Shown here one piece after another: positions 3,828 to 60,482 of a stretch of DNA of 64,000 nt. The stretch covers positions 1-64,000 of the forward strand of contig JAAFKA010000014.1 of the NCBI GenBank assembly GCA_013299115.1, given 5' to 3'. The position numbers and the translations under genes are program-made. Below the pieces are notes generated by a model, which was not told the DNA's origin, made no database searches, and worked only from the letters and a program-made list of their open reading frames with translations. The stretch's first letter is position 1. Every line of letters starts with the position of its first letter. The DNA comes from Cytophagales bacterium. GTDB taxonomy: Bacteria; Bacteroidota; Bacteroidia; Cytophagales; Thermoflexibacteraceae.

Positions 3828-3844
3828 GATTTACCACAAATTGT

Positions 3845-3922
3845 GTAGTGTGGACTTCAGTCCACACATAATGAATAATGTTTATTACTCAGTTAAAATG
3901 TGTGGACTGAAGTCCACACTAC
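3845..3922. repeat. Hairpin-pair element, copy 1
   Basis: Two inverted 24-bp copies of gtagtgtggacttcagtccacaca flank a 31-bp spacer. Each copy is itself a perfect 8-bp-stem hairpin (gtgtggac-ttca-gtccacac). The element lies between convergent genes. The same 24-bp terminal units recur at 61007-61123. Confidence 0.85.
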
Positions 3923-3927
3923 ATATC

Positions 3928-9880: not shown

Positions 9881-9932
9881 TTACTTTTTCCATAGTGTAG
9901 GGGTTGCAACCCCTACACTATGGAAAAAGTAA
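9881..9932. terminator. Bidirectional terminator-like perfect hairpin (24-bp stem, tgca loop)
   Basis: ttactttttccatagtgtaggggt-tgca-acccctacactatggaaaaagtaa lies between convergent genes, with a T-run on one side and an A-run on the other. Confidence 0.7.
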
Positions 9933-15164: not shown

Positions 15165-15284
15165 ATAGAGGTTATTACGATTTGTACCGTACTCTTTGGC
15201 GGGGGTTGCCTCCAACTGCAGGGTCAATTAGTTGAAAATCAAGAAGTTATTTTTCTATACAAAAATTATCGTAATAACCTCTAC
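15165..15284. mobile_element. MITE-like element, copy 1 (~118 bp with 16-bp terminal inverted repeats tagaggttattacgat)
   Basis: About 95% identical to 18024-18137. The termini are perfect inverted repeats. It sits directly after a stop codon between convergent genes. Confidence 0.6.
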
Positions 15285-18023: not shown

Positions 18024-18137
18024 GGTTATTACGATTTGTACTGTACCCTTTGGCGGGGGTTGCCTCCAACTGCAGGGTCAATTAGTTGAAAATCAAGAAG
18101 TTATTTTTCTATACAAAAATTATCGTAATAACCTCTA
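18024..18137. mobile_element. MITE-like element, copy 2
   Basis: Same element as 15165-15284, again directly downstream of a stop codon between convergent genes. Confidence 0.6.
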
Positions 18138-37330: not shown

Positions 37331-39595
37331 ATGTCCAAATCAGTATTCTTACTTATACTATGCTGTTTCATTGCTATTTATAGCCACGCCCAAAATAAAA
37401 AAATTCTGGATAGTTTGACTGTTGTCTATCAAAATACAACCTCGGATACTTCCAAAATTCTCATACTGTTGCAAATAGCCTTTGAATATAAGCGAAGCAA
37501 CCCCGATACTTGCATTGCCCTTGCCCAAAAAGCCTTAAATTTGAGTGAAAAAGCAAAATATGAGCATGGAAAAGGAGAAAGTTATCATCATTTGGGTTTG
37601 GGGCATGACTATAAAAATGCTTACCCAATGGCTTTGGACTACTTCCAAAAAAGTTTGGCTATCAAAACAAGGTTAAAAGATAAACAAGGTGCTTCCAAAA
37701 GTCTGAACAATATTGGCATTATTTACGACATACAGGGCAATTATCCGTTGGCGTTGGCGTATTTCCAAAAAAGCCTGAAAATGCGGGAGGAATTAGGCGA
37801 CAAAGTGTTGATTGCAGCAAGTTTAAACAATATTGGGGGCATTTATGATATGTTGGGTAACTATCCGTTGGCGTTGGAGTATCACCAAAAAAGCCTGAAA
37901 CTGAAAGAGGAACTGCACGACCTACGGGGAATTGCTATTAGTTTTAACAACATTGGCAGCATTTATGAAATTCAAAGAAAATATGCCATTGCCTTAACTT
38001 ATTACAAAAAAAGCCTGAAAATAAAAGAACAACAGGGGGACAAACAAGGAATTTCGGCAAGTCTAAACAATATTGGAGGCATTTATGACCTGCAAGGCAA
38101 CTATGATTTGGCTTTGGAATATCACCAAAAAAGCCTACAACTCAAAGAGGAACTAAACGACAGGCTGGGGCTTACACACAGTTTCAACAGTTTGGCACAG
38201 GTCTATCAAAAGCAAAAAGACTACAACAAAAGCATAGCGTATGCCCAAAAAGGCTTAGAAATAGCCCAAAAAATAGAAGCTTTGGCAGAAATTCAGGCAA
38301 TTAGCCAAACTTTATACACAACTTGTAAACTAAAAGGTGATTATGCACAGGCTTTGCAATATCACGAACTATACAAAACAGCTAACGATAGCCTTTTTAG
38401 TGTAGAAAAAAATACTGCAATAGAGAGTTTGGAAGCAAAAACAAACATAGAACGGAAGGAGAAAGAAATTGCAATTCTGAATAAAAATCAAGAAATTTTA
38501 GAAACTGCCAAAACTTTTCAGCAACGTATCAATTATTTGGTGCTGGCGGCTTTGGGGGCTGTATTGGTGTTGGCTTATTTTATCTACCGCAGTCGCCAGC
38601 AAGAGAAAACCGCAAAAGAGGAAACCCAGCAGATAAACGAGGAACTGCGGACTATTTTGCTTACCGTCAATGAACAAAAAGACAAAATAGAACAGACTTT
38701 GGCGATTGTCAATAGCCAAAAAACTATTATTGAGCAAAAAAATGAGAATATTATTGCCTCTATCAATTATGCCTTGCGGATACAAAACGCCATTATTCCC
38801 AAAGAAACAGAGTTGCAAAAACACTTAGACTGTTTTGTGTTTTTCCGCCCTCTGGATATTGTAAGCGGAGATTTTTATTGGTTTGCAGAGAAAGAAAACA
38901 CCAAAATCTTAGTCGTTGGCGACTGCACAGGGCATGGCGTATCGGGTGCTTTTATGACCATGATTGCCAATGATTTGCTCAACCAAATTGTCCAGAACTA
39001 CGAAATTCACCAGCCCGATGTCATACTCAACCAAATGCAGGTGCTGCTACACAAGGTTTTTGCGGTTTCTGAACAGGAAATAGCCGATGGAATGGATATG
39101 GCTGTCATTGTTATCCAAACCTTACAAGGTCTTGAAGACCTTGTAAGGTTTAGGGTAGCCTATTCGGGTGCAAAAATACCCCTGTATTGGGCAACCACCA
39201 ACAGAGAAACCCAACAGACTGAACTGCACGAAATCAAGGCAGACCGAATAGCACTGACGGGAGGGCAGCAAAACGTGGCACACCAATATACGTTGCATAC
39301 ACTTGGCTATCAGGCAGTTAGGGCAGATACAGACAACGAAAATTTTGTTACCATGCCCCAAAACGCCGAAGTAAATTTTTATCTCTGTTCTGATGGCTAT
39401 CAAGACCAATTTGGGTCAGAAACTAAGAAAAAGTTGCTCTCTGCCAATCTCAAAAAAATATTGTTGGAGGCTGCTCCCTTGCCAATAGCACAACAAAAAA
39501 TGATGGTAAGTGAAAAATTTTATGAGTGGAAAAGAGATTACAAACAAATAGATGATGTGTTGGTGGTGGGGGTGAAGCTGCAAGTTTCCCATTAG
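37331..39595 (+). CDS. TPR-repeat sensor with a TM helix and a C-terminal PP2C/SpoIIE-type serine phosphatase domain
   Basis: N-terminal TPR array paralogous to the 41030 gene, followed by a coiled coil, a TM segment and then SGDFYWF...VGDCTGHGVSGAFMTM, the SpoIIE/PP2C signature. Confidence 0.8.
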   Translation: MSKSVFLLILCCFIAIYSHAQNKKILDSLTVVYQNTTSDTSKILILLQIAFEYKRSNPDTCIALAQKALNLSEKAKYEHGKGESYHHLGLGHDYKNAYPMALDYFQKSLAIKTRLKDKQGASKSLNNIGIIYDIQGNYPLALAYFQKSLKMREELGDKVLIAASLNNIGGIYDMLGNYPLALEYHQKSLKLKEELHDLRGIAISFNNIGSIYEIQRKYAIALTYYKKSLKIKEQQGDKQGISASLNNIGGIYDLQGNYDLALEYHQKSLQLKEELNDRLGLTHSFNSLAQVYQKQKDYNKSIAYAQKGLEIAQKIEALAEIQAISQTLYTTCKLKGDYAQALQYHELYKTANDSLFSVEKNTAIESLEAKTNIERKEKEIAILNKNQEILETAKTFQQRINYLVLAALGAVLVLAYFIYRSRQQEKTAKEETQQINEELRTILLTVNEQKDKIEQTLAIVNSQKTIIEQKNENIIASINYALRIQNAIIPKETELQKHLDCFVFFRPLDIVSGDFYWFAEKENTKILVVGDCTGHGVSGAFMTMIANDLLNQIVQNYEIHQPDVILNQMQVLLHKVFAVSEQEIADGMDMAVIVIQTLQGLEDLVRFRVAYSGAKIPLYWATTNRETQQTELHEIKADRIALTGGQQNVAHQYTLHTLGYQAVRADTDNENFVTMPQNAEVNFYLCSDGYQDQFGSETKKKLLSANLKKILLEAAPLPIAQQKMMVSEKFYEWKRDYKQIDDVLVVGVKLQVSH

Positions 39596-39640: not shown

Positions 39641-39934
39641 TTGCAAACTACTATTTCTCTCCATAATTTTAGTGTATTCTCTGATGCTACTAAATTCGTG
39701 CAAATCGGAGTTGCGGACACAGGCGTAGGCATGAGTGCCGAACAGATGGGCAAACTGTTCAAACAAGCCACTTCTTTTACAACCTACGGCACCAGTGGCG
39801 AAAAAGGTACAGGCTTAGGCTTGCTATTCTGCCAAGAAATGGCGGAGAAAAACGGAGGCAAAATTTGGGTGGAAAGTGAGCAAGGCAGAGGCACTACGTT
39901 TTGGTTTACGGTGGCAATAAAGTTAGCAAGTTAG
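39641..39934 (+). pseudogene. Orphan duplicate of the 3' end (HATPase_c G1/G2 boxes) of the TPR histidine-kinase gene
   Basis: 39677-39934 is about 98% identical at the nucleotide level to 43703-43960. It encodes only DTGVGM...GTGLGL...FWFTV, without HisKA or N-box. Confidence 0.75.
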
Positions 39935-39971: not shown

Positions 39972-40805
39972 CTACACTTCATCGGGATTTATCCCCATAG
40001 CACGCAATTTTTCTGCTAATTTGTCTGCACGTTGCTTTTCTGTTTCTGCACGTTGCTTTTCAGACTCTGCACGTTGTTTTTCAGACTCTGCACGTTGCTT
40101 TTCGGCTTCTGTTTTCTGCTTTTCTGTTGCCAATTTTTTGTCTTTTATTGCAAGTTGCTGATTTTTTTCTGCCACCGCCTCCACACCCGTAGGCAATAGC
40201 ACGCCGTTTTGGTCTTGCCAACGCACCCATTCTTCTTTCATGCCCTCATATTCTCCCTGCCAAGCCACAGGTGTTATGCCTATTCGGTCTAAAAAATTAC
40301 TTTCTTTGAGGTAATAAGCCCCTGCTCGCAATTCATAAACCATTATCAACTGCTTTTGCAAAAATTGCAAAGGGTCTATAATGATGTAGTAAGGTACACC
40401 AGCCTTTGCATAGACATCAAATTTTTTGCCTTTTTCATTGCCTACTGTATTGGACACTACTTCCACCACCACTTCGGGAGATTTGCCCAACTCCCATATC
40501 ATATAGACCCGATGGCGTTTTTCCCACACATCAGGCGGATAGGAAATGTCCATGCTTAGGAGCATATCAGGCACGATGGCGGGCAAGTGCAAGCCATAAT
40601 ATAGCCCTACGTTGGTCGAGGCTACAAATTGCCTTTCGCCAAAGGGCGAGGCTGTCTGCAAAGTATCAATCAACAGGCGTTGCTGTTTTTCAGAATAAAT
40701 ATTGTCCACAGGCGTATCGTCTTCGGTTAGCAAATGCTCCACATTGGGTGGAGTGATTACAAAATCCTCCACAACCTCCGTTGTTGTTGTCTGGCGGGTT
40801 TTCAT
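39972..40805 (-). CDS. Uma2 family endonuclease with a C-terminal (EKQRAES)n coiled-coil repeat
   Basis: VVEVVSNT...GVPYYIIIDP core, with a tandem 7-aa repeat tail. Confidence 0.65.
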   Translation of the reverse strand: MKTRQTTTTEVVEDFVITPPNVEHLLTEDDTPVDNIYSEKQQRLLIDTLQTASPFGERQFVASTNVGLYYGLHLPAIVPDMLLSMDISYPPDVWEKRHRVYMIWELGKSPEVVVEVVSNTVGNEKGKKFDVYAKAGVPYYIIIDPLQFLQKQLIMVYELRAGAYYLKESNFLDRIGITPVAWQGEYEGMKEEWVRWQDQNGVLLPTGVEAVAEKNQQLAIKDKKLATEKQKTEAEKQRAESEKQRAESEKQRAETEKQRADKLAEKLRAMGINPDEV

Positions 40806-41029: not shown

Positions 41030-43963
41030 TTGAAAAAGCTAATTCTTGTATTTTTTTTGCTTTTTGCAGCCACAAGTAACTTTTGCTTTGCCCAAAACAA
41101 AAAAGTAATAGACAGCCTTACACAAGTCTATCACAACGCCAAGCACGACACAATAAAAGTATTGGCTCTTACTTCTATTGCCTACGAGTACAGAAGAAAT
41201 AAGCCAGATACTTGTATTTCCATTGCTGAAAAAGCCCTGCAAATAAGTGAAAAAATACAGTATCGCAAAGGGCAAGGCAATAGTTATCATCACATAGGTT
41301 TAGGCTATTATAATAAGAGTGCTTACCCTTTGGCATTGGAATATTACCAAAAAAGCTTGAAAATACGAGAAGAAATAGGGGATAAACAAGGTATAGGAAG
41401 TAGTTTCAATGCCATAGGGCTTATTTACAATAATCAAGGCAATTACCCTTTGGCTTTGGAATATCACCAAAAAAGTCTGAAAATAGAGAGAGAAATAGGC
41501 AATAAGCAAGGCATAGCCATTAGTTTGAATAACATAGGCAATATTTATGATAATCAAGGCAATTACCCTTTGGCTTTGGAATATCACCAACAAAGTCTGA
41601 AAATAGCGGAAGAAATAGGCAATAAACAAGGTATAGCCAGTAGTTTGAATAACATAGGCAATATTTATGATAGTCAAGGCAATTATCCATTGGCTTTGGA
41701 ATATTACCAAAAAGGTATGAAAATAGAGGGAGAAATAGGCAATAAAAAAGGCATAGCCAGTAGTTTGCATAACATAGGGATTATTTACAAAAATCAAGGC
41801 AATTATCCTTTGGCTTTGGAATATTACCAAAAAAGTATGAAAATAGAGGGAGAAATAGGCAATAAAAAAGGCATAGCCAGTAGTTTGCATAACATAGGGA
41901 TTATTTACAAAAATCAAGGCAATTATCCTTTGGCATTAGAATATTTCCAAAAAAGCCTAAAAATAAAGGAAGAAATAGGGGATAAACAAGGCATAGCCAA
42001 TAGTTTGAATAACATAGGACTTATTTACGATGATCAAGGTAATTATCCTTTGGCATTGGAATATTACCAAAAAAGCCTAAAAATAAAGAAAGAAATAGGG
42101 AATAAACAAGGCATATCCATTAGTTTGAGTAACATAGGGAGTATTTACAAAAATCAAGGCAATTATCCTTTGGCATTAGAATATTATCAAAAAAGCCTGA
42201 AAATAGAAGAAGCAATAGGAGATAAAAAAGGCATAGCTGGTAGTTTGAGTAACATAGGCAATATTTATGATAGTCAAGGCAATTACACTTTGGCTTTGGA
42301 ATATTACCAAAAAAGCCTGAAAATAACAGAAGAAATAGGCGATAAATTGGGAACTACCTATTCCCTGTGTGGAATTGCCCAAGTAGCCCAAAAACAAAAA
42401 GACTATGATAAAAGCATAGATTATGCACAAAAAAGCCTAAAAATTGCCCAAGAAATAAAAGCCTCCGCAGAAATCAAAAGTGCAAGCGAAGTCCTTTACA
42501 ATAGCTATAAACTCAAAGGCGACTATGTGAAAGCCCTTGAATACCACGAACTATTTAAGGCAACGAATGATAGTATTTTCAATATAGACAAAGCAAAGAA
42601 AATAGCTAATTTGGAAGCAACTGCGGAGATAGAAAAAAAGTCAAAAGAAATAGAGATTTTGAATAAAAACAAGGAATTATCCCAAAAAGAAAAAGAGGTG
42701 TTGGAAAAAGATTTGAAACTCCAAAGTACAGAGGCAGAAAGGCAGCGAAATGCTAATTTGGTGCTTGAAAAACAAGCAGAAGCAGATAAATTATTCAACC
42801 TTGCTCGGCAAGAAAAAGACAAACGAAAAGCAGACAGCCTGAATAACCTTGCCCAGTATCACCAACTGCAAGCTGATAACCTAAAAGCAAAAGAAAAACA
42901 GCTGCAAGCCGAAAATAAAGCCCAAAAAATAGAGTCTATCAAAGAAAAAGAAGCAAAGGAATTTCAACAATATATTACCTATTTGGTATTGGTGGGGCTT
43001 TTTTCTGTTGTAGTTTTTGCTTATTTTATTTTTATTTCTCGCAAAAAAGTTCAAAAAGCATACGAACAATTAGAAGTTTCTAAAATCAAAATTCAAGAAA
43101 CCAATCAGCATTTGACATTGGCAAACGAGGAGATTTCGCAACAGAAAGAGGAAATTGTGCAACAAGCCGACAACCTCCAAGCTGTAAATCAGACCAAAGA
43201 CAAGCTTTTTGCCATCATAGGGCATGACCTCCGCAACCCTGTGGCTTCGCTAAAAGGAATGTTGGACTTGGTGGTTTCGCAAGACATTAGCCAAGAGGAA
43301 TTTGCAGAATATGCACCCAAACTTGCCGAAAACGTAGAAAATATGCACTTTACGCTAAACAATTTGCTGTCGTGGGCAAACAGCCAACTGCAAGGCATAG
43401 CCAACAAACCCCAAAATATTAACCTCCACGAATTGGCACAAGAAAACTGCAATCTACTCAAAGAAATAGCCGCTCAAAAAGGTATTAATTTGGCGAATGA
43501 ACTACCAAACAACTTGCAAGGCTACGCAGACCAGCAGCAGATTAACCTCATTTTCAGAAACTTAATTGGCAATGCCCTAAAATTTACGCCCGCAGGTGGA
43601 AGTGTGAAAGTGGTTTTAGAAAATAGAACTAACATTTCTCAAAGAAATGTTAGTTCTGAACAATTTAGTAGCATCAGAGATGACATCTTTCAAAAAGATG
43701 TCATCTCTGATGCTACTAAATTCGTGCAAATTGGAATTGCGGACACAGGCGTAGGCATGAGTGCCGAACAGATGGGCAAACTGTTCAAACAAGCCACTTC
43801 TTTTACGACCTACGGCACCAGTGGCGAAAAAGGTACAGGCTTAGGCTTGCTACTCTGCCAAGAAATGGCGGAGAAAAACGGAGGCAAAATTTGGGTGGAA
43901 AGTGAGCAAGGCAGAGGCACTACGTTTTGGTTTACGGTGGGAGTAAGGTTAGTAAATTTTTAG
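41030..43963 (+). CDS. TPR-repeat sensor histidine kinase (signal peptide, ~10 TPR units, TM helix, coiled coil, HisKA, HATPase_c)
   Basis: H-box IIGHDLRNP, N-box NLIGNALKFT, G1 DTGVGM, G2 GTGLGL. Confidence 0.85.
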   Translation: MKKLILVFFLLFAATSNFCFAQNKKVIDSLTQVYHNAKHDTIKVLALTSIAYEYRRNKPDTCISIAEKALQISEKIQYRKGQGNSYHHIGLGYYNKSAYPLALEYYQKSLKIREEIGDKQGIGSSFNAIGLIYNNQGNYPLALEYHQKSLKIEREIGNKQGIAISLNNIGNIYDNQGNYPLALEYHQQSLKIAEEIGNKQGIASSLNNIGNIYDSQGNYPLALEYYQKGMKIEGEIGNKKGIASSLHNIGIIYKNQGNYPLALEYYQKSMKIEGEIGNKKGIASSLHNIGIIYKNQGNYPLALEYFQKSLKIKEEIGDKQGIANSLNNIGLIYDDQGNYPLALEYYQKSLKIKKEIGNKQGISISLSNIGSIYKNQGNYPLALEYYQKSLKIEEAIGDKKGIAGSLSNIGNIYDSQGNYTLALEYYQKSLKITEEIGDKLGTTYSLCGIAQVAQKQKDYDKSIDYAQKSLKIAQEIKASAEIKSASEVLYNSYKLKGDYVKALEYHELFKATNDSIFNIDKAKKIANLEATAEIEKKSKEIEILNKNKELSQKEKEVLEKDLKLQSTEAERQRNANLVLEKQAEADKLFNLARQEKDKRKADSLNNLAQYHQLQADNLKAKEKQLQAENKAQKIESIKEKEAKEFQQYITYLVLVGLFSVVVFAYFIFISRKKVQKAYEQLEVSKIKIQETNQHLTLANEEISQQKEEIVQQADNLQAVNQTKDKLFAIIGHDLRNPVASLKGMLDLVVSQDISQEEFAEYAPKLAENVENMHFTLNNLLSWANSQLQGIANKPQNINLHELAQENCNLLKEIAAQKGINLANELPNNLQGYADQQQINLIFRNLIGNALKFTPAGGSVKVVLENRTNISQRNVSSEQFSSIRDDIFQKDVISDATKFVQIGIADTGVGMSAEQMGKLFKQATSFTTYGTSGEKGTGLGLLLCQEMAEKNGGKIWVESEQGRGTTFWFTVGVRLVNF
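41300..42360. repeat. Near-identical 120-bp tandem repeats inside the CDS (TPR units)
   Basis: For example, 41701-41820 and 41821-41940 are essentially identical. Many units share more than 85% identity. Confidence 0.9.
43624..43717. repeat. Two consecutive palindromes embedded in-frame in the HK ATP-lid region
   Basis: agaactaacatttct-caaag-aaatgttagttct (43624-43656) and the perfect 24-bp-arm palindrome tagtagcatcagagatgacatcttt-caaa-aagatgtcatctctgatgctacta (43665-43717). Together they encode about 30 extra residues between the N-box and G1. Confidence 0.85.
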
Positions 43964-44207: not shown

Positions 44208-44242
44208 ATAACTAATATTTCTTTAAGAAATGTTAATAGTAA
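44208..44242. repeat. Degenerate member of the acatttct..agaaatgtt palindromic repeat family
   Basis: taactaatatttctttaagaaatgttaatag lies upstream of polA. Confidence 0.5.
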
Positions 44243-44300
44243 GGAAGTCCAAGCATTGCTTTTGTGGCACTACCAATTTGCGAAGCCTATTTTACCACCC

Positions 44301-47183: not shown

Positions 47184-47206
47184 AAATAAGTAGTACCACA
47201 GATGTA

Positions 47207-47240
47207 ATGCCAGAACTAACATTTTTCAAAGAAATGTTAG
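47207..47240. repeat. Palindromic repeat family member (agaactaacattt-ttcaaa-gaaatgttagttct)
   Basis: Lies between convergent polA and murE. Related to the 43624 and 55785 copies. Confidence 0.8.
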
Positions 47241-47302
47241 TTCTTCTATAACTTTTTAAAGCCTATTTTTATAAACCCTTGTAGATTTCCTGTACCTAAT
47301 TT

Positions 47303-55729: not shown

Positions 55730-55784
55730 AAGTTTTTGAAGTTAAGAGTTGTCTATGATGGCAAGAGTAGTGCCGCAGATATAA

Positions 55785-55823
55785 TGCTTAGAAGTAACAT
55801 TTCTTTGAGAAATATTACTTCTA
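55785..55823. repeat. Palindromic repeat family member (cttagaagtaacatttct-ttgag-aaatattacttctaag)
   Basis: Shares the extended taatgc..agaa.taacatttct motif with the 47198 copy. Confidence 0.8.
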
Positions 55824-56065
55824 AGCTGATACCAGTATTATTTGTTTGACATTACTATCGCAAGACTGCAAAACTGCAAAATTTGATTTATTTTAACTAA
55901 CTACCAATCAAATAGTTATACTAATTTTTGATAAACCCCAAAAAAACTTCTACCTTTGTAAGAGTTTCATATAAACAAAGCCGTGAGGTCTAACAAGTGC
56001 CAGAAAGAAAGGGCAGCAAACAAGGCATTACCACAACTTTCTAAACAGTTGAAAACAATAACAAG

Positions 56066-58132
56066 ATGGCAAATTTTAAAAACAAAGGAACAGGGCAGAA
56101 AGGTGGTGGATATGGTAGCCGCAATAATTCCCAAAAAGAGACCAGAGGGTTTTCTGAAAACAGAAACCGCAGCAGTGCTGGCGGCGAATCCAAAAGATTT
56201 GGCAGCGACAAACCTAACTTTGAGAAAAAACGTAGTTTTGGCAGCGACAAACCAGCCTTTGAGAAAAAACGTAGTTTTGGTGGAGAGGACAAACCACGTT
56301 TCGAAAAACGTAGTTTTGGCAGCGACAAACCAGCCTTTGAGAAAAAACGCAGCTTTGGTGGTGAAGACAAACCACGTTTCGAGAAACGTAGTTTTGGCGG
56401 AGATAAACCCGACTTTGAGAAAAAACGCAGCTTTGGTGGTGAAGACAAACCACGTTTCGAAAAACGTAGTTTCGGTGGAGATAAACCCGACTTTGAGAAA
56501 AAACGCAGTTTTGGAGGAGAAGACAAACCACGTTTCGAAAAACGTAGTTTTGGCGGAGATAAACCAGCCTTTGAGAAAAAACGCAGCTTTGGTGGAGAAG
56601 ACAAACCACGTTTCGAGAAACGTAGTTTTGGCGGAGATAAACCAGCCTTTGAGAAAAAACGCAGTTTTGGAGGAGAAGACAAACCACGTTTCGAAAAACG
56701 TAGTTTTGGCGGAGATAAACCCGACTTTGAGAAAAAACGCAGTTTTGGAGGAGAAGACAAACCACGTTTCGAAAAACGTAGTTTTGGCGGAGATAAACCC
56801 GACTTTGAGAAAAAACGCAGCTTTGGAGGAGAAGACAAACCACGTTTCGAAAAACGTAGTTTCGGCGGAGATAAACCCGACTTTGAGAAAAAACGCAGCT
56901 TTGGAGGAGAAGACAAACCACGTTTTGAAAAACGCAGTTTCGGCAGTGATAAACCTGAATTTGAGAAAAAAAGTAGTGTTGGAAGCGAAGACAAACCACG
57001 TTTTGAGAAAAAGAATTTCAGTGACAATAAATCACGTTTCGAAAAACGTAGTTTCAGTAGCGACAAACCAGCTTTTGAGAAAAAAAGTAGTGTTGGAGGA
57101 GAAGACAAACCACGTTTTGAGAAAAAGAATTTCACTGACAATAAATCACGTTTCGAAAAACGTAGTTTCAGCAGCGACAAACCAGTTTTTGAGAAAAAAC
57201 GCAATTTTGTAGCAGACGAACCTGTTTTTGGAAAAAATAATGGCAAAGAAACCAACGAAGACGATTTGGGTTTTGAAGGTGGCGAAGGCAACAAAAACGA
57301 AAATACTTTCCGCAAAGACAACAAAAAGTTTGGGTTTGGTAAAAAACAAAGACCTGATTTCAATCCGATTGTAGAAACCAAGAAAAAGCACGTAACCGTA
57401 AAAAAAGCCGTTGGTGATGTGCATACCATACGCCTCAACCGTTTTATAGCCAATGCGGGTGTATGTTCACGCAGGGAGGCAGACGAATTGATAGCCACAG
57501 GACAGATAACTGTTAATGGCAAAGTGGTAATGGAAATGGGCTTTCAGGTGCATACGCATGATGACATACGCTATCAAGGCGAAAAACTGAACAGAGAAGC
57601 CTTAGTTTATGTGTTGCTCAATAAACCCAAAGACTTCATCACGACTACAGACGACCCCGAAGGCAGAAAAACTGTAATGGATTTGGTAAAACAAGTAGGC
57701 GATGAAAGAATTTATCCCGTTGGCAGACTTGACCGAAACACCACAGGTTTGTTGCTATTGACCAACGATGGCAAATTAGCCGATAAATTGTCGCACCCGT
57801 CGAGCAATGTGCATAAAGTTTACGAAGTGCTGTTAGACAAACCAATCACCGAAGAAGATTTGCAAAAACTTTTGACAGGCATCACCCTCGAAGACGGTTT
57901 GGCACAGGCAGACAAGGCTACAATGGTTACGCCTGATGGCATGGTGGTAGGCATTACCATTCACAGTGGCAAAAACAGGGTAGTTCGCCGTATGTTTGCA
58001 GAACTGAACTACGAAGTAGTGAAATTGGACAGAACTCACTATGCAGGCTTGACTAAAAAAGGAGTTGGCAGAGGAAATTGGCGTTTGCTCACTCCCCAAG
58101 AGGTTTTGCGACTAAAACATTTTACGCACTAA
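56066..58132 (+). CDS. rluB: 23S rRNA pseudouridine synthase (RluB/RsuA family) with a long N-terminal K/R/E-rich tandem-repeat extension
   Basis: The C-terminal 250 aa carry an S4 domain plus the PseudoU_synth_2 motif (RLDRNTTGLLLLTNDG). The N-terminus holds about 12 copies of a 24-aa unit. Confidence 0.8.
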   Translation: MANFKNKGTGQKGGGYGSRNNSQKETRGFSENRNRSSAGGESKRFGSDKPNFEKKRSFGSDKPAFEKKRSFGGEDKPRFEKRSFGSDKPAFEKKRSFGGEDKPRFEKRSFGGDKPDFEKKRSFGGEDKPRFEKRSFGGDKPDFEKKRSFGGEDKPRFEKRSFGGDKPAFEKKRSFGGEDKPRFEKRSFGGDKPAFEKKRSFGGEDKPRFEKRSFGGDKPDFEKKRSFGGEDKPRFEKRSFGGDKPDFEKKRSFGGEDKPRFEKRSFGGDKPDFEKKRSFGGEDKPRFEKRSFGSDKPEFEKKSSVGSEDKPRFEKKNFSDNKSRFEKRSFSSDKPAFEKKSSVGGEDKPRFEKKNFTDNKSRFEKRSFSSDKPVFEKKRNFVADEPVFGKNNGKETNEDDLGFEGGEGNKNENTFRKDNKKFGFGKKQRPDFNPIVETKKKHVTVKKAVGDVHTIRLNRFIANAGVCSRREADELIATGQITVNGKVVMEMGFQVHTHDDIRYQGEKLNREALVYVLLNKPKDFITTTDDPEGRKTVMDLVKQVGDERIYPVGRLDRNTTGLLLLTNDGKLADKLSHPSSNVHKVYEVLLDKPITEEDLQKLLTGITLEDGLAQADKATMVTPDGMVVGITIHSGKNRVVRRMFAELNYEVVKLDRTHYAGLTKKGVGRGNWRLLTPQEVLRLKHFTH
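56200..57190. repeat. 72-bp tandem repeat array within the rluB 5' region
   Basis: Repeating ...gaaaaacgtagttttggcgga/gataaacc...gactttgagaaaaaacgcagttttggaggagaagacaaaccacgtttc units. These also create long spurious ORFs in other frames. Confidence 0.9.
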
Positions 58133-60288: not shown

Positions 60289-60482
60289 CCTCGAAGAGGT
60301 TGAACAGCAATAGCCCTACGTGAAACGTAGGGACAGTAAAGTAGCTTTTTAATCCAACCCCGCAGGGGTTGAACAATGATACAATAGGTGCAAGTGAGTG
60401 TTCAACCCCTTCGGGGTTGGATGTAATGATGACAATATACCCTACGTTGCACGTAGGGCTATTGATGTTCAACCTCTTCGAG
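60289..60482. repeat. ~200-bp imperfect palindrome built from three hairpin types in mirror order (A-B-C ... C'-B'-A')
   Basis: aacctcgaagaggtt, ccctacgtgaaacgtaggg and caaccccgcaggggttg on the left. On the right are caaccccttcggggttg, ccctacgttgcacgtaggg and caacctcttcgaggttg. Loops are GAA, GAAA and UUCG-like. Confidence 0.85.

Follow-up and report, generated by a model that had tools for sequence, protein, structure and literature searches.

The window analysed here is the whole 64,000-nucleotide (nt) stretch of Cytophagales bacterium contig JAAFKA010000014.1, and the subject of this report is a sensor histidine kinase gene at 41030-43963 whose coding sequence contains two perfect palindromes, P1 and P2. 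We favour, at a probability of roughly 0.78, a reading in which the kinase holds an in-frame insertion of two adjacent units from dispersed hairpin-repeat families, followed by steps of arm growth and breakage. The features concerned are:

41030..43963, plus strand: host sensor histidine kinase gene, an intact open reading frame (ORF) of 977 amino acids (aa)
43625..43657, plus strand: P1, a perfectly palindromic 33-nt unit of 11 codons (RTNISQRNVSS)
43662..43722, plus strand: P2, a 61-bp perfect palindrome with 29-nt arms and a CAA loop
43676..43708, plus strand: P2 core, 33 nt or 11 codons (RDDIFQKDVIS)
43625..43711, plus strand: net 87-nt (29-codon) insertion, with the most parsimonious boundaries given the spacing in homologues
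43712..43722, plus strand: the outermost 11 nt of the P2 right arm, GCTACTAAATT, codons A-T-K-F, assigned from the same spacing

The kinase comprises N-terminal TPR repeats, a transmembrane/coiled-coil region, a HisKA domain and a HATPase_c domain (Pfam matches: TPR_12, 5.8e-102; HisKA, residues 723-783; HATPase_c, residues 834-970). It retains the H, N, G1 and G2 motifs and an unbroken ORF; the HATPase_c match spans 137 residues against a profile of 111 positions. P1 and P2 are both perfect and, as an earlier sequence-only reading of this DNA had stated, both lie in frame within the ORF, where the insert region encodes RTNISQRNVSS-EQFSSI-RDDIFQKDVIS-D. That reading had also described P2 as a perfect palindrome of 53 bp with 24-bp arms ending at 43717; the perfection stands, but the palindrome is larger and ends at 43722. 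GTAG and CTAC lie inside its outer arms, at 43667-43670 and 43714-43717, respectively.

Thousands of homologues were retrieved in a protein search with the kinase core, and the top one is about 52% identical. We compared motif spacing in the 112 homologues with recognisable motifs among the top 120: the N box (NALKFT) and G1 (DTGxG) are separated by 51 residues in the kinase and by 22 residues in 112 of 112 homologues. The kinase has therefore gained a net 29 codons, or 87 nt, where about 30 extra codons had been proposed. Since these codons are missing from every one of the 112 aligned homologues, the comparison supports a derived insertion. Segment 43625-43711 reads, in order, P1 (33 nt), GAAC, 14 nt of outer left arm from P2, the 33-nt P2 core and GAT. 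It is the most parsimonious insert because the P1 family unit is complete from position 43625 onward. With these boundaries, the reconstructed empty site would read GGSVKVVLEN/ATKFVQIGIAD, with GTGGTTTTAGAAAAT/GCTACTAAATTCGTG as the predicted DNA (the slash marks the point of insertion). An alternative would be a 98-nt insertion combined with an 11-nt deletion. Given the invariant 22-residue spacing and a complete P1 unit from 43625, the 11 nt at 43712-43722 are probably native kinase sequence, in which case their mirror at 43662-43672 would be an inverted copy of the flank.

We modelled the kinase core with AlphaFold2 (286 residues translated from 43103-43960, which set the residue numbering here; 64 sequences; mean predicted local distance difference test score, pLDDT, of 85.8). 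In the model the insert corresponds to residues ~173-206, which have pLDDT values of 55-70 and are flanked by two confident strands: residues 167-172, after the N-box helix (144-160), and residues 207-214, which lead into G1. G1 lies at 214-218 (D214, G216, G218) and G2 at 244-248. Likewise, the HMMER alignment of the kinase to the solved HK853 splits at the VKVILDE/KDGG hairpin, upstream of G1. In the GHKL fold, the ATP lid is the segment from G1 to G2, here residues 219-246. Because the insert precedes G1, the model places it in a beta-hairpin turn outside the lid; the sequence-only reading had put it in the ATP lid and proposed modelling of HATPase_c as confirmation, and on this point both the model and the HK853 alignment contradict it.

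P1 has the sequence AGAACTAACATTTCT-CAA-AGAAATGTTAGTTCT, with 15-nt arms around a CAA loop, and belongs to a family with the consensus AGAAnTAACATTTCT-nnn-AGAAATGTTAnTTCT. The acatttct/agaaatgtt repeat family to which the sequence-only reading had assigned it is real, with five matches in the window against 0.1 expected. A search for further copies, which that reading had recommended for both palindromes, recovered P1-type units in the window and in other genomes, and relatives of the P2 core elsewhere. Three further P1-type copies in the window are each adjoined by a 21-nt module that starts with GTAG, GTAGTRCCRCAGATRTAATGC:

47190..47244, plus strand: intergenic P1-type copy (47212-47244) after the GTAG module (47190-47210)
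55767..55826, plus strand: intergenic P1-type copy with 19-nt arms (55786-55826), with the GTAG module before it (55767-55787)
44208..44273, minus strand: degenerate P1-type copy (44208-44240), flanked on the other side by the GTAG module (44253-44273, minus strand)

P1 is identical at 32 of 33 positions to the copy at 47212-47244, which lies 3.5 kb away, 29 nt 3' of the polA stop codon and between convergent genes. It also resembles the units at 55790-55822 and 44208-44240, the latter within the copy that lies between the kinase stop codon and the polA start codon. Scanning species-representative genomes with a degenerate P1 pattern gave at least 68 copies, spread over 48 loci, for one Bernardetiaceae metagenome-assembled genome (MAG; JAFIER01) and at least 18 copies in five other Cytophagales/Bacteroidota MAGs, all of these counts being lower bounds. 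Among the matches listed, the remainder were single chance matches in A+T-rich genomes. The units in these MAGs have the form AGAAATAACATTTCT-nnn-AGAAATGTTATTTCT, with changes in one arm mirrored in the other, and they form mosaics with other repeat modules. Nearly all are intergenic, and essentially none falls in a real ORF.

The P2 core, AGAGATGACATCTTT-CAA-AAAGATGTCATCTCT, has the same loop as P1 and matches it in register at 10 of 15 arm positions, each difference being mirrored in the other arm. A Cytophagales MAG (locus L107) contains near-identical cores whose arms reach about 33 nt. A scan for AGATGNNATCTTTNNNAAAGATNNCATCT identified at least 125 P2-type copies on at least 120 metagenome contigs, and all of the listed copies are palindromic at both free arm positions. 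The modal perfect arm is exactly 15 nt (58 of 125 listed copies), loops vary, and the GC content of the flanks ranges from 27 to 60%. Of 65 classifiable intergenic copies, 23 lie between convergent, 41 between tandem and one between divergent genes, compared with a baseline of 54, 170 and 54 gaps, respectively, at the same loci (Fisher p = 1e-4), and the copies lie a median of 23 nt from the nearest stop codon. The genes upstream of P2-type copies are diverse, although 11 of their proteins share a C-terminal tail. In the one clean test of this tail, it matched the type IX secretion system (T9SS) sorting domain Por_Secre_tail at 30.1 bits against a cut-off of 27, and this match points to hosts in the Fibrobacteres-Chlorobi-Bacteroidetes (FCB) group. 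Some P2-type cores lie within longer perfect palindromes with arms of 30-54 nt (L107:18-86 and ~1990-2075; L118, L153, L182, L207, L217 and L228). The outer arms of these palindromes fall into subfamilies common to several contigs, such as GTTCAAGAAG... and TTTATGAATAAC..., and a GTAGTGCC module is tied to P2-type cores in L217 and L107.

In both families the unit is a 33-nt perfect palindrome of 11 codons, consisting of a 15-nt arm, a 3-nt loop and a second 15-nt arm. Each arm is itself an inverted repeat, so that a unit contains four hexamer half-sites with 3-nt spacers: AGAAAT-nnn-ATTTCT-nnn-AGAAAT-nnn-ATTTCT for the P1 type and AAAGAT-nnn-ATCTTT-nnn-AAAGAT-nnn-ATCTTT for the P2 type. Successive snap-back duplications would yield this nested layout. 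On either strand, a unit can be read through without a stop codon in two of its three frames. Overall, four perfect palindromes in the window combine a 3-nt loop with arms of 10 nt or more; shuffled sequences average 0.14. The unit sequences were not found in the literature, where only unrelated primers matched. The same nested arrangement of a palindrome made of palindromes is also seen at window positions 39117-39151, with four half-sites and short spacers in all three families; such a layout permits either one long hairpin or two short ones.

Units of these families also occur in frame in unrelated proteins. P2-type units lie within type I HsdR genes on four contigs (L125, L154, L197 and L204) at two sites. 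At the second of these, the palindrome differs in each of four orthologues: one has a P2-type unit, another such a unit with paired changes, a third a GC-rich hairpin (CCCCGAT) and the fourth a GTAGGAACATGA hairpin. Further P2-type units lie in frame in an MmeI-family enzyme, where RDDIFPKDVISA is read in the same frame as RDDIFQKDVIS in the kinase, and in a VKOR/thioredoxin protein. These in-frame P2-type copies elsewhere are exact 33-mers without duplicated flanks.

A second coding palindrome lies in the window itself, in a TPR-SpoIIE gene (37331-39595), and has an intergenic relative:

39117..39151, plus strand: in-frame coding palindrome of 35 bp in the TPR-SpoIIE paralogue, perfect, with 17-nt arms, encoding QTLQGLEDLVRF
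27553..27587, plus strand: intergenic relative of the palindrome at 39117, located 11 nt past the stop codon of the gene at 24852-27542

The SpoIIE loop that holds the 39117 palindrome is 22 aa long here, against 15 aa in 65 of 93 homologues. A 68%-identical homologue carries a 39117-type palindrome with one mismatch at this loop, in a 36-nt block that is 97% identical against 75% across the gene. Two more distant homologues have other palindromes there, both with 16-nt arms, one perfect and one with a single mismatch, and a homologue in another assembly has a perfect P1-type unit, AGAAATAACAGTTCT-CTA-AGAACTGTTATTTCT, which encodes RNNSSLRTVIS in the frame used by P1. In all, four different palindromes occupy this loop across homologues (L111, L112, L113 and L235). 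For the SpoIIE loop, we did not retain an initial reading of vertical descent with compensatory changes: given the P1-type unit at this loop and the four palindromes at one HsdR site, insertions at hot spots, whether independent or by replacement, are at least as likely.

These observations can be combined into a sequence of events. Units usually lie a few to a few tens of nucleotides after stop codons, between convergent or tandem genes, and would occasionally land within a gene. A copy inside a gene would survive only where the reading frame is kept and a surface loop is permissive, in this case the beta-hairpin turn before G1. With less certainty, the P2 stem may then have lengthened from 15 to 29 bp through an intramolecular template switch, in which snap-back copying would add to P2 an inverted copy of the adjoining native codons. 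The resulting long perfect palindrome could later have been fragile or recombinogenic, and a 260-bp copy of the 3' end of the gene may in this way, in a single case, have been deposited 4 kb upstream. The sequence-only reading had likewise seen a mobile or recombinogenic palindromic element that was tolerated in a flexible loop and later served as a recombination site. Of this, the insertion of a dispersed family agrees with our results, the placement of that loop in the lid does not, and the recombination step would have its cause read from one event.

The copy in question is an orphan fragment of the kinase gene:

39673..39932, plus strand: orphan 3' kinase fragment (G1 to C-terminus), 260 bp, identical to 43699-43958 at 249 of 260 positions

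It lies 78 nt 3' of the stop codon of the paralogous TPR-SpoIIE gene and about 4 kb upstream of its source segment. An orphan of 258 bp at 39677-39934 that starts inside the right arm of P2 had been described before, and our analysis retains the start and corrects the extent. Unambiguous identity begins at 43703/43704, 6-10 nt into the right arm of P2 (43694-43722), so that the orphan carries 20-24 nt of this arm, including the insert-derived bases TCTCTGAT; because these bases are present, the orphan postdates the insertion. Upstream of the junction, local alignment found no significant homology. Degenerate left-hand parts of P1 and P2 in the orphan (AATTTTAGT, AAACTACTATTTCTC) were tried as candidates and rejected, as their alignment scored 43.5 against a shuffle mean of 44.8. 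Nor did we take it as a sign of selection that the arms have stayed perfect since the orphan was duplicated: at an assumed divergence of ~1-2% per lineage, the absence of changes in 88 paired bases is unsurprising (estimated P ~0.2-0.4).

Among the rival explanations, the one that survives best concerns only this last step, namely that the breakpoint in P2 is coincidental and that unrelated illegitimate recombination copied or truncated the fragment. There is a single event to judge from, neither a palindrome remnant nor significant homology lies left of the junction, and the chance that a random breakpoint hits P1 or P2 is about 3% (94 nt of the 2934-nt gene), which is low but not negligible. 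Set against this, the junction lies 7-11 nt away from the midpoint of P2, a perfect palindrome of 61 bp. Both SbcCD-type hairpin cleavage and replication template switching are known to favour long perfect palindromes. We regard a coincidental breakpoint as possible, though doubtful.

A purely local origin, in which replication template switching made both palindromes in situ out of the kinase's own sequence, is an explanation to which we give little credence. It would account for the perfection of both palindromes, for the mirroring of seemingly native codons (ATKF) by the outermost 11-14 nt of P2, and for the nested units, which are as successive snap-back duplications would give. It does not account for the family copies: P1 matches an intergenic copy at 32 of 33 positions and dozens of units in other genomes, and the P2 core has at least 125 copies elsewhere. 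By this sequence comparison, a local origin of the two 33-nt cores is largely refuted, and what local template switching accounts for is probably just the lengthening of the P2 arms.

Slightly less probable still is a selected regulatory structure, either an internal terminator or pause site that gives a truncated kinase without G1-G2 or a switch that operates by deletion of the palindrome. P2-type units usually lie where terminators lie, at gene 3' ends, and the unit stems end in TTT; moreover, RNA folding of 43610-43735 gives -63.9 kcal/mol (z = -14). However, the stems are A+T-rich and end in TTT only, without an extended U tract, no part of the window matches Rfam at gathering thresholds, and no homologue has anything at this site. 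The in-frame copies at unrelated sites in unrelated proteins fit passive tolerance better.

An assembly or amplification artefact, a chimeric inverted duplication, can be dismissed almost entirely: chimeras from multiple displacement amplification (MDA) or hairpin-adapter reads can make perfect inverted repeats, and the collections searched hold no independent assembly for comparison, but the gain is exactly 29 codons in an intact ORF, the orphan independently carries 20-24 nt of the right arm, and the 33-nt units recur in many independent assemblies, some of them in frame.

Several observations weigh against an insertion of dispersed units with subsequent arm growth and breakage. First, neither an empty-site allele nor a close orthologue was found in the collections searched, where the best homologue is about 52% identical, and an exact 35-mer of the kinase gene had no match in metagenomes; an exact look-up of a neighbouring protein from the window also returned no record. 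Both the insert boundaries and the probable native status of 11 nt of P2 therefore follow from the 22-residue rule. Second, we saw no target-site duplication, the 87-nt insert being flanked only by a trivial AT direct repeat, and across the window and 1.45 Mb of fetched loci the 14-nt outer arm of P2 has no second copy. Third, a weak tblastn search of these loci and the window with E. coli REP-associated tyrosine transposase (RAYT; REP, repetitive extragenic palindrome) and IS200 TnpA queries found no RAYT or IS200-type transposase and nothing below E = 0.07, the loci covering a fraction of any genome. Fourth, P1-type copies in MAGs are not significantly depleted between divergent genes and show a weak trend only (p = 0.49). 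Fifth, the recurrent insertion sites could reflect either the targeting of hairpins or survival in permissive loops. Finally, from one event we infer that the palindrome caused the orphan breakpoint. We also infer that the elements are actively mobile; a transposase, a target-site duplication and an empty-site allele were each looked for in these searches and not found.

Dispersed coding palindromes have precedents. Rickettsia palindromic elements (RPEs) lie both between genes and in frame inside many unrelated genes (Ogata et al. 2000, as summarised in PMC10969869 and PMC3733652). The P1 and P2 units share with RPEs a dispersed palindromic nature, an in-frame location in unrelated proteins with the ORF kept, and orthologues with or without the insert. 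They differ in that RPE-1 is ~100-150 bp and Rickettsia-specific and RPEs end in a CGTC tag (PMC3733652), whereas our units are 33 nt long, are built of nested half-sites, have hosts of Cytophagales/FCB type and show neither a CGTC tag nor sequence similarity to RPEs. They thus behave like RPEs and are not members, by size, tag and host.

REPs and REPINs (Di Nocera et al. 2013, PMC3733652; Nunvar 2010, PMC2817692; Bertels and Rainey 2011, PMC3116915) offer a second comparison. REPs are found downstream of ORFs and between convergent and unidirectional genes, and tagged REPs (GTAG or CGTC) are also present within genes of several phyla, with dimers that encode 20-30 residues; the same survey reported no GTAG REPs in Bacteroidetes (PMC3733652). 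REPs and REPINs resemble our units as high-copy palindromes of 20-40 bp that form dimers or mosaics, here P1 and P2 in tandem in a 29-codon insert. P2-type units share with REPs a position 3' of ORFs and a rarity between divergent genes, for which P1-type units show a trend only. The GTAG-starting 21-nt module beside three window copies, one L107 copy and L217, together with the GTAG within the P2 arm, recalls the REP tag, but most P1- and P2-type units in other genomes have neither GTAG nor CGTC at the end of the stem. REPs are also usually species-specific, whereas the same 33-nt unit occurs on contigs whose flanks have 27-60% GC.

[quoted passage not shown] Like MITEs, our units are small, non-autonomous and hairpin-forming and have A+T-rich intergenic targets. 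Unlike MITEs, which have terminal inverted repeats around an internal region, produce target-site duplications and usually measure 100-400 bp, the entire 33-nt unit is a palindrome with no duplication seen, and we do not count the units as MITEs.

Quasipalindrome template-switch mutagenesis (the Ripley model) and SbcCD hairpin cleavage are mechanisms, not element families. Template switching would account for the perfect arms, the inverted copy of the flank and the end point near the palindrome centre. Taken together, the kinase carries an intragenic insertion of REP/RPE-like character, which is a known type of event, and the repeat family involved is apparently new and undescribed.

Palindromes that encode protein in frame are chiefly familiar from Rickettsia, with scattered examples of intragenic REPs in Proteobacteria and some further phyla. 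The kinase case extends them to Bacteroidota of Cytophagales type with a unit of only 11 codons. It also draws attention to two sister families of 33-nt hairpins, which lie at gene 3' ends on many metagenome contigs and are found again, in frame, at the same SpoIIE and restriction-enzyme loops. The SpoIIE and HsdR hot spots would allow targeting and tolerance to be tested against each other directly. In genome annotation, inserts of this kind account for unusual low-confidence loops within conserved domains and flag rearrangement-prone sites. A broader proposal, which we put forward tentatively and think less likely than not, is that 33-nt nested palindromes with four ARARAT/ATYTYT-type half-sites are a new sequence-conserved class of 3'-end hairpins, widespread in the FCB group, that spread without classical RAYTs by targeting hairpins, preferentially enter or replace existing hairpins, grow their arms by snap-back copying and repeatedly donate 11-codon modules to proteins. 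If this were true, a preference for existing hairpins would give differing palindromes at one SpoIIE loop and at one HsdR site across orthologues.

Other palindromes and repeats occur in the window, which has a GC content of 38.5%, and the genome is rich in several types of hairpin repeat. Its repeat families and top protein hits suggest an affiliation with Cytophagales close to Bernardetiaceae; for the two sensor domains, the top homologues are 52% and 68% identical. A perfect loop-less 52-bp palindrome at 9881-9932 (TTACTTTTTCCATAGTGTAGGGGTTG/CAACCCC...) lies between convergent genes, and its CCATAGCGTGGGGTTTGCAAACCCCACGCTATGGAAAAA module is common beside P1-type units in the Bernardetiaceae MAG. 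Other intergenic palindromic families are found at 3844-3923, 61091-61125, 60500-60534 and 60352-60422, and include TGTAGTGTGGACTTCAGTCCACACAT and ATCCAACCCCGCAGGGGTTGAACA. Dispersed duplicates of 110-130 nt with 98-99% identity pair 20947-21078 with 24783-24914, 15170-15283 with 18024-18137 and 1-130 with 929-1058. Between two TPR sensor genes lies a gene for a Uma2-family putative endonuclease (39972-40805, minus strand), whose C-terminus is encoded by 21-nt tandem repeats (EKQRAES x4). About 12 tandem 78-nt copies at 56150-57219, in the ORF at 56045-58132, encode a recurring ...KPxFEKKRSFGG... peptide, with the last two copies spaced 114 nt apart. Shorter tandem arrays comprise three 72-nt units at 63376-63591 and 12-nt units at 214-321.

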